Shown here piece by piece: positions 4,285 through 5,475 of a stretch of 6,219 nt of DNA. Source of the DNA: a virus (taxonomy: Duplodnaviria > Heunggongvirae > Uroviricota > Caudoviricetes). How positions within the stretch are numbered: position 1 is the stretch's first letter; every line of letters begins with the position of its first letter. Location of the stretch: IMG/VR virus record IMGVR_UViG_2778261347_000002, positions 1-6,219 of that record; one strand, 5' to 3'. The notes under the pieces were generated by a model. It did no database searches and was not told the DNA's origin. It worked only from the letters and a program-made list of their open reading frames with translations. Both the position numbers and the translations under genes were made by a program.

Positions 4285-5475
4285 ATGCCACTGACAGCTC
4301 GACAAGTTGAAACAGCCAAACCCAAAGATAAAATTTATAAGATTGCCGATGGTGGTGGGCTCTACCTTCAGGTCAATCCTAACGGCTCAAAGTACTGGCG
4401 AATGAAGTACCACTATGCGGGGAAGGAAAAGAAACTATCATTTGGCACCTATCCAACTATTACATTGGCTGAAGCTCGCAAACGTCGGGATGAAGCCAAG
4501 AAAATACATGCCGATGGTAAAGATCCCGGTGAAGTCAAGAAAGCTGAAAATCTTGAGAAAAACCTTTCCGAAGGAAGAACTTTTGCCGCAATCGCCACCG
4601 AGTGGTACAACGCAAAAGTTTCAGGCTGGTCTGCCAGCTACGCTGATTATGTCGACAGAGCATTCAAAAATAATGTGTTTCCCTACATTGGAAACAGACC
4701 CATTAGTGAAATCGAACCTCTTGAACTTCTCGCAGTTCTTCAGCGTATCGAAAGCCGAGGAGCCTGCGAGCTAGCTAATAAAGTTCGCCAACGATGTGGT
4801 GAAGTGTTTCGGTATGCCATTGTTACAGGTCGGGCACGATACAATCCAGCTTCTGATCTGGTTATAGCAATGAAAAGCTATAAGCGAACACATTACCCTT
4901 TCCTGCTTCCTCCTGAACTACCAGAGTTTTTATACAAACTCGAAAACTAAACCGGCAGTATTGTAACCCGTGAAGCTACAAAATTGTTGATGCTCACAGG
5001 GCTGAGAACAGTAGAATTACGTATGGGGGAATGGTGTGAGATCGATTTTACCCAAAAGATATGGGAAGTTCCTCCGACCCGGATGAAAATGAGGAAGGAG
5101 CATATCGTCCCTCTGTCAGATCAGGCAATCCAGTCTCTGCAAATCCTCAAAGAACTGACTGGAAGATACAGATACATCTTTGCCGGAAGAAATGATGTTA
5201 ACAGGCCTATCAGCGATGCAAGCGTCAATATGGTTTTGAAGAAGATTGGCTATGACAAAAAAGCTACCGGGCATGGATTTCGTCATACAATGAGTACTGT
5301 TCTACACGAGCAAGGATTCAATAGTGCATGGATTGAAATGCAACTTGCACATACGGACAAAAACAGCATTCGTGGTACATACAACCATGCTCGTTACCTT
5401 GAAGGAAGACGAGAAATGATGCAATGGTACGCTGACTACCTTGATGCTCTTCGAAAAGAGTCACCAGCTATATAA
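4285..5475 (+). pseudogene. P4/IntS-family tyrosine integrase interrupted by one in-frame TAA (4948-4950)
   Basis: Track ORFs 4258..4950 and 4984..5475 are in the same frame, separated only by TAA at 4948-4950. N-terminal arm-binding domain (MPLTARQVETAKPKDKIYKIADGGGLYLQV...) and C-terminal catalytic region with the typical HGFRHT and GTYNHARYLEGRREMMQWYADYL motifs. ATG 4285 is preferred over the track's TTG 4258. Confidence 0.75.

Follow-up and report, generated by a model that had tools for sequence, protein, structure and literature searches.

A single nonsense codon in a degraded argW island: the dead integrase beside torI in Escherichia coli O26:H11 is not the partner of the prophage excisionase

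An excisionase gene, torI, and an integrase gene interrupted by one stop codon lie close together on the same strand of a DNA stretch recorded as viral (Caudoviricetes; IMG/VR record IMGVR_UViG_2778261347_000002, positions 1 to 6,219; these 6,219 nucleotides are referred to here as the window). This arrangement raises the question of whether the two genes are the excision and integration partners of one prophage, and of what the stop codon means for the element that carries it. Window positions 1-6197 were 100% identical to E. coli O26:H11 chromosomes, including that of the reference strain 11368 (NC_013361.1 3300759-3306955). In both O26:H11 11368 and O103 RM8385, positions 4285-5475 carry the RefSeq/PGAP label 'tyrosine-type recombinase/integrase', pseudo, 'internal stop'; the status of the integrase is thus already known from annotation, and the gene is an ordinary pseudogene. 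A literature search on the O26 integrative element at argW returned general mobilome papers, and a description of the pseudogene was not found among them. The present analysis adds three things: it establishes exactly which codon preceded the stop in ancestral alleles, counts both alleles in complete genomes, and shows that torI and the integrase are neighbours by tandem insertion and not partners. We hold it very probable that the gene is the recently inactivated integrase of a degraded island at argW, killed by a C-to-A change that turned Tyr222 into TAA, and that torI serves another integrase, IntS. All features below lie on the plus strand unless stated otherwise.

The integrase pseudogene (4285-5475) was delimited from the sequence, the PGAP annotation and intact 396-aa alleles as a P4/IntS-type tyrosine recombinase gene of 396 codons with a stop at codon 222. 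The frame runs from ATG 4285 to TAA 5473-5475 and reads TAC AAA CTC GAA AAC TAA ACC GGC AGT ATT GTA around the ochre codon at 4948-4950, which gives ...LYKLEN*TGSIVTREATKLL... on translation across the stop. ATG 4285 is the start used by the homologues and by PGAP; TTG 4258, where the mechanical open reading frame begins, is not a likely start. The upstream fragment (4285-4947, 221 aa) matched Pfam Arm-DNA-bind_3 (PF13356; 1.7e-28) and Phage_int_M (PF22022; 2.2e-33), and thus comprises the arm-type DNA-binding and the central, core-binding domains. A search of solved structures agreed, returning only structures in which the N-terminal or central domain of a CPS-53/CP4-like integrase was solved by itself (2kj8, 3ju0, 3jtz) and, weakly, XerA, with no information on residue 222. 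The downstream part (4951-5472, 174 codons) matched Phage_integrase (PF00589; 1e-25) and encodes R241, K268, H330, R333, H356 and Y366. These six residues, invariant columns of the alignment of homologues, correspond to the established tyrosine-recombinase catalytic set (R-K-H-x-x-R-H plus the Tyr nucleophile), and all of them lie 3' of codon 222, as an earlier reading of this DNA from its sequence alone had proposed when it described the N-terminal fragment as devoid of catalytic residues.

The domains spread over the two halves (PF13356, PF22022/PF14659 and PF00589) occur as an identical set in a single chain of the intact 396-aa relative P0001, so that the two halves are one gene split by one codon and not a chance juxtaposition. 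Since PF00589 begins at residue 207 of the intact relative, the stop cuts the catalytic domain off after its first 15 residues. The sequence-only reading had further held that two integrase open reading frames share a frame and are parted by TAA alone; frame, translation and domain split all agree with this, and none of the integrase homologues has a natural gene boundary at codon 222. By domain architecture and by conservation of the catalytic residues the gene belongs with the P4/IntS-type tyrosine recombinases, but its frame is interrupted at codon 222, which makes it a pseudogene of that family and not a functional recombinase.

The ancestral state of codon 222 could be read directly from intact alleles. 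The intact gene of strain FDAARGOS_536 (WP_001131472.1) and the window gene are both 1191 nt long and differ at one position, 4950, which is C in the former and A in the latter. Codon 222 is likewise TAC in three metagenome contigs encoding P0001 (L004-L006), and in a second intact allele, WP_001131474.1, which is 96.5% identical with 41-42 differences. Most of these are synonymous, a sign that purifying selection acts on the intact copies. In an alignment of 13 sequences, with close homologues from Providencia, Enterobacter, Citrobacter, Serratia, Yersinia and Salmonella, all 11 close homologues (60-99% identity) had Tyr in the codon 222 column, and only IntS, at 49% identity, had Phe. This alignment to intact IntS/P4-family integrases was the check that the sequence-only reading had proposed, and its outcome bears out the suggestion that the TAA lies one substitution from a Tyr codon, which is TAC in every intact allele read. 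The equal gene lengths and the one differing base also uphold the view that this was a point nonsense mutation rather than a deletion. The mutation is TAC (Tyr222) to TAA, a single C-to-A transversion at 4950.

With respect to the distribution of the two alleles, the integrase gene was present in 270 of 5426 complete E. coli genomes. Using exact matches to a 61-mer centred on codon 222, the TAA form was found in 79 of these 270 genomes and the TAC form in 160; two of the remaining 31 were sampled, and both contained intact genes with an extra SNP nearby. The listed TAA carriers had genomes of 5.35-5.94 Mb, the named ones being O26:H11, O111:H11 and O103, and the TAC carriers were a diverse group with genomes of 4.6-5.2 Mb, with humans, poultry and water among their sources. 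The restriction of TAA to related large-genome strains suggests a single origin of the mutation and its fixation in a clonal lineage. A protein search returned the intact 396-aa P0001 at 99% identity, in a cluster that also held fragments of 163, 221 and 230 aa resulting from the stop, and the 163-aa fragment protein appears in the records of at least 1000 contigs. As an intact allele lies only one base away, an error of sequencing or assembly in a single record comes to mind. That explanation can be given virtually no weight, since the TAA 61-mer was identical in 79 complete genomes sequenced independently, in many laboratories, and the fragment protein is as widely recorded as just described. 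In many carrier genomes a second place also matched 4100-5700, and 65 records had a best match of only 80-90% identity; these matches probably stem from a P4-type integrase paralogue at another chromosomal site.

Could full-length integrase still be made by programmed readthrough or a suppressor tRNA? The downstream frame is fully intact, and nothing else specific speaks for recoding of the TAA. Against it, TAA serves as an ordinary stop in the window (for torI, for two other genes and for the integrase itself), the intact alleles simply carry TAC, and scans of the whole window found neither a tRNA gene nor, at gathering thresholds, any Rfam element. In E. coli, moreover, both release factors, RF1 and RF2, recognise UAA, and wild-type strains are not known to carry ochre suppressors. 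Recoding is accordingly exceedingly improbable.

Identification of the element to which the integrase belonged depended on the DNA between it and torI. A 16-bp att core, CTGCAGGGGACACCAT, lies at 4095-4110; it matches the published KplE1 core, is a copy of the 3' end of the tRNA-Arg gene argW, and forms the junction between prophage attR and island attL. A tRNA gene at this position was considered and rejected, the tRNA scan being empty and only the 16-bp copy of the argW 3' end being present. To the left of the core the DNA was identical to the K-12 torI-attR arm at 84 of 89 positions. In the phage records that match the window (Kapi1, Sf6, IME10, N7 and others) homology ends at 4110, or at 4109 in one record. 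To the right, the island attL arm and integrase leader (4111-4284) were defined by comparison with O103 RM8385 and FDAARGOS_536: positions 4100-5700 were 100% identical to the DNA directly after argW in O103 RM8385, and positions 4095-4284 (190 bp) were 99.5% identical in FDAARGOS_536, which carries the intact allele. The integrase lies directly downstream of argW, with no prophage in between, in O103 RM8385, in metagenome contig L004 and in FDAARGOS_536. A phage-borne integrase was also considered, and was rejected when 4100-5700 matched none of 50,697 phage records.

The left part of the window (1-4094) is, from comparison with phage records and PGAP annotation, the right, early-left operon end of a P22-family prophage resembling Sf6, Kapi1 and HK620, with ead/Ea22, DUF551 and DUF4752 genes and torI. 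The torI gene (3821-4021) was identified from its PGAP name and from its product, identical to K-12 TorI at 66 of 66 residues, as the excisionase (recombination directionality factor, RDF) of this neighbouring prophage. In K-12 CPS-53/KplE1, argW and intS lie at one end and torI and attR at the other, and the recombination module of KplE1, HK620 and Sf6 has been defined by int and RDF genes at opposite prophage ends together with a duplicated 16-nt core (PMC2951348). The same layout was found in O26:H11 11368, where argW and its core (3264189) are followed by intS, a 40.7-kb prophage, torI, a second core (3304853) and the interrupted integrase, int*. The intS beside argW is intact, differing from K-12 IntS at 3 of 385 residues, and between intS and torI lies a full P22-family set of structural, lysis, replication and immunity genes. 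The prophage is apparently complete, of the Sf6/Kapi1 kind with a KplE1-type recombination module. In a prophage gene of the DUF2737 family (17-181) a TAA was seen at codon 29 (...KPMPSRE*LLKRKSF...), for which PGAP gives pseudo, 'internal stop', and the neighbouring ead/Ea22-like gene (762-1238) is annotated as truncated, so that decay has also reached the early-left region of the prophage.

Beyond int* in O26:H11 11368 the chromosome continues with a 26.7-kb island and a third core, 15/16 identical (NC_013361.1 3331545), before csc/dsdA. The features of a tRNA-inserted island are thus all present, namely an integrase beside the tRNA and direct repeats of the tRNA 3' end at both ends, 26.7 kb apart. 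The three att cores and the element boundaries show that prophage and island stand one behind the other at argW, with the dead integrase as part of the island and not of the prophage. Past the right-hand core of the island (CTGCAGGGGACACCAG; L007:7546-7650, NC_013361.1 about 3331545-3331650), and with the csc sucrose genes and a truncated dsdX following directly, the DNA resembles the island attL arm (GAAATCTACC...ACCCC...AAAAG), and this likeness suggests a putative remnant of a third argW-specific element that has lost its integrase.

These data bear on the explanation that gene order in the window would most readily invite, in which xis, int and att would be arranged as in lambda, the pseudogene would be the integrase of the prophage, and the nonsense mutation would lock the prophage, with its upstream excisionase gene, in the chromosome. 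The order of torI, 263 bp and the integrase on one strand does resemble lambda xis-int. The prophage, however, has its own intact intS beside argW at the opposite end, where K-12 CPS-53 and the published definition of the IntS/TorI module (PMC2951348) place it. The 16-bp core separates torI from the pseudogene, phage homology stops there, no phage record contains 4100-5700, and the integrase sits directly after argW in phage-free form in O103 RM8385 and in intact-allele strains. The pseudogene is moreover only 49% identical to O26 IntS and so is not an orthologue of it, and it lies outside the prophage, on the far side of the 4095-4110 core; the arrangement of int and RDF at opposite ends of a core-bounded element fits intS-prophage-torI and not the pseudogene. 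We regard a locked prophage as highly improbable. The gene torI pairs with the intact intS some 40 kb away and not with the dead integrase. One proposal of the sequence-only reading does not survive this assignment: an excision test by induction of the excisionase presumes that torI is the partner of the interrupted integrase. As torI belongs with the intS of a separate prophage, such a test reports excision of that prophage, whatever the state of the pseudogene.

The att arms were also compared for repeats. A motif search found two direct GGGTAAAATA repeats in the prophage attR arm (4016-4037), and this motif and its inverse also occur upstream of intS in the O26 attL. The sequence GGGTAAAA is present in four copies in the window against 0.21 expected, two of them being the tandem GGGTAAAATA repeats, and none lies in the island arm (4111-4284). 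The repeats of the attR arm may be arm-type sites for IntS, and we put them forward as candidates. The other two GGGTAAAA copies are on the minus strand, at 5046-5053 in the pseudogene and at 6168-6175 near the end of the window. A repeat search over 4111-4284 and the right end of the island gave only short two-copy families, none common to both ends, so that arm-type sites for the island integrase did not emerge.

The island itself is visibly decayed, being ridden with IS elements and truncated genes. In O26:H11 11368 its 26.7 kb include a PapB-like gene, a frameshifted IS3, IS66 copies, a disrupted gene with an HsdR-N domain, and genes for Ag43, antirestriction, DUF932, JAB-domain and YeeU antitoxin proteins; in the intact-allele strain the integrase is followed by the same downstream island genes (PapB/IS3/HsdR-N). 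In the FDAARGOS_536 island, genes for a DEAD/DEAH helicase, an ATP-binding protein and a TerB-N-domain protein lie in a row (L008:30243-36067), a trio resembling a defence system, which is absent from the O26 island, where IS66 elements and other genes are found in its place. Within the window, the island DNA that follows the pseudogene (5476-6219, assigned to neither strand; 744 bp) was found by reading-frame and composition analysis to have 30.6% GC, as against 44-46% elsewhere, and to contain no open reading frame of at least 40 aa. A strong terminator-like hairpin without an Rfam match lies at 6144-6164 (+; GCCTCCAC...GTGGAGGC followed by T7). The stretch may simply be AT-rich DNA of the island, or a small gene or sRNA missed by annotation could lie in it.

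Comparison with known systems placed the gene among relatives at three distances. The closest is the intact argW-island integrase (WP_001131472.1, WP_001131474.1; the P0001/P0132 cluster), which is the same gene, of the same length, at the same site after argW and with the same downstream island genes. The WP_001131472.1 gene is identical to the window copy at 1190 of 1191 nt; the window copy differs in having TAA in place of TAC at codon 222, and in O26 it is separated from argW by the 40.7-kb prophage. IntS (CPS-53/KplE1, K-12 b2349; phages of the Sf6/HK620/Kapi1 type) shares with the pseudogene the Arm-DNA-bind_3, Phage_int_M and Phage_integrase domains, the argW target, the 16-bp core and the order of tRNA then integrase. 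Compared with IntS, the pseudogene has 49% amino acid identity and a different attL arm lacking GGGTAAAA, lies on a non-phage island, and is absent from the 50,697 phage records; it is a paralogous member of the family and not IntS. The CP4-type (P4-like) integrases, such as IntA of CP4-57 and those of CP4-44-like islands, are likewise tRNA-adjacent tyrosine integrases at the left end of an island, and CP4-type islands share Ag43, YeeU-type antitoxin, antirestriction, DUF932 and JAB-domain genes with the argW island. The N-terminal domain of the pseudogene matches the solved arm-binding domains described as 'CP4-like integrase' (3jtz, 3ju0), a likeness at the family level; the pseudogene differs from these integrases in its tRNA target and in its nonsense codon. 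Both the family (P4/IntS-type tyrosine integrases) and the setting (tandem elements at a tRNA gene) are well known.

The remaining alternative is that the truncated gene is useful, either because the 221-aa fragment acts as a DNA-binding regulator or a dominant-negative protector of the argW att site, or because the C-terminal frame restarts and complements it. The gene has accumulated no mutation besides the stop when compared with the intact allele, and the TAA allele is fixed in a successful pathogen lineage. IntS-type integrases bind attL and repress their own promoter (PMC2951348), a precedent that favours a retained fragment. The missing further decay is explained equally well by recency, with 0 other differing sites, and an island full of IS elements and truncated genes is consistent with neutral decay. 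The longest restart frame in the downstream part begins at TTG 4984 and encodes 163 aa, and no Shine-Dalgarno-like sequence was found ahead of TTG 4984 or ATG 4990. In a simple promoter scan nothing resembling a sigma-70 site came up between the att core and ATG 4285 (4111-4284), and the only strong site that it returned, 4307-4334, lies within the integrase gene. A useful fragment of either kind is therefore very unlikely. The same low probability is given to its more specific form, in which the TAA allele would have been kept in the O26/O111/O103 H11 lineage with the 221-aa fragment binding the argW att region as a domesticated, catalytically dead regulator. If that were true, the fragment could make the tandem of island and prophage more stable, or could modulate prophage excision driven by IntS and TorI.

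Under the preferred reading, recent inactivation of an island integrase, the change from TAC to TAA at 4950 would stop translation 15 residues into the catalytic domain and leave a 221-aa product with arm- and core-binding domains and without catalytic residues. As judged from this domain content, the product would have lost the ability to cut and rejoin DNA, and an inactive product would leave the island unable to excise by its own enzyme; recombinase activity was thus presumably lost with the truncation. Low-level integrase activity through rare readthrough or fragment complementation would be formally possible, the rest of the gene being equal to a functional-looking allele. A separate prophage has inserted at the same argW core, placing 40.7 kb between argW and the dead integrase, and its excision by IntS and TorI would be expected to restore the argW-int* junction known from prophage-free strains. 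IntS itself is unlikely to substitute in excision of the island, because the attL arms of island and IntS are unrelated and the island arm is without the GGGTAAAA repeats seen in both prophage arms.

Beyond annotation hygiene the pseudogene matters little, although the TAA allele, present in 79 of the 270 carriers, sets these genomes apart and could serve as a lineage SNP. Of the two tandem elements, only the prophage would, judging from its genes, keep a working IntS/TorI pair. These data indicate that gene order alone, with an excisionase gene followed by an integrase gene on one strand, misleads the prediction of mobility in these pathogens.
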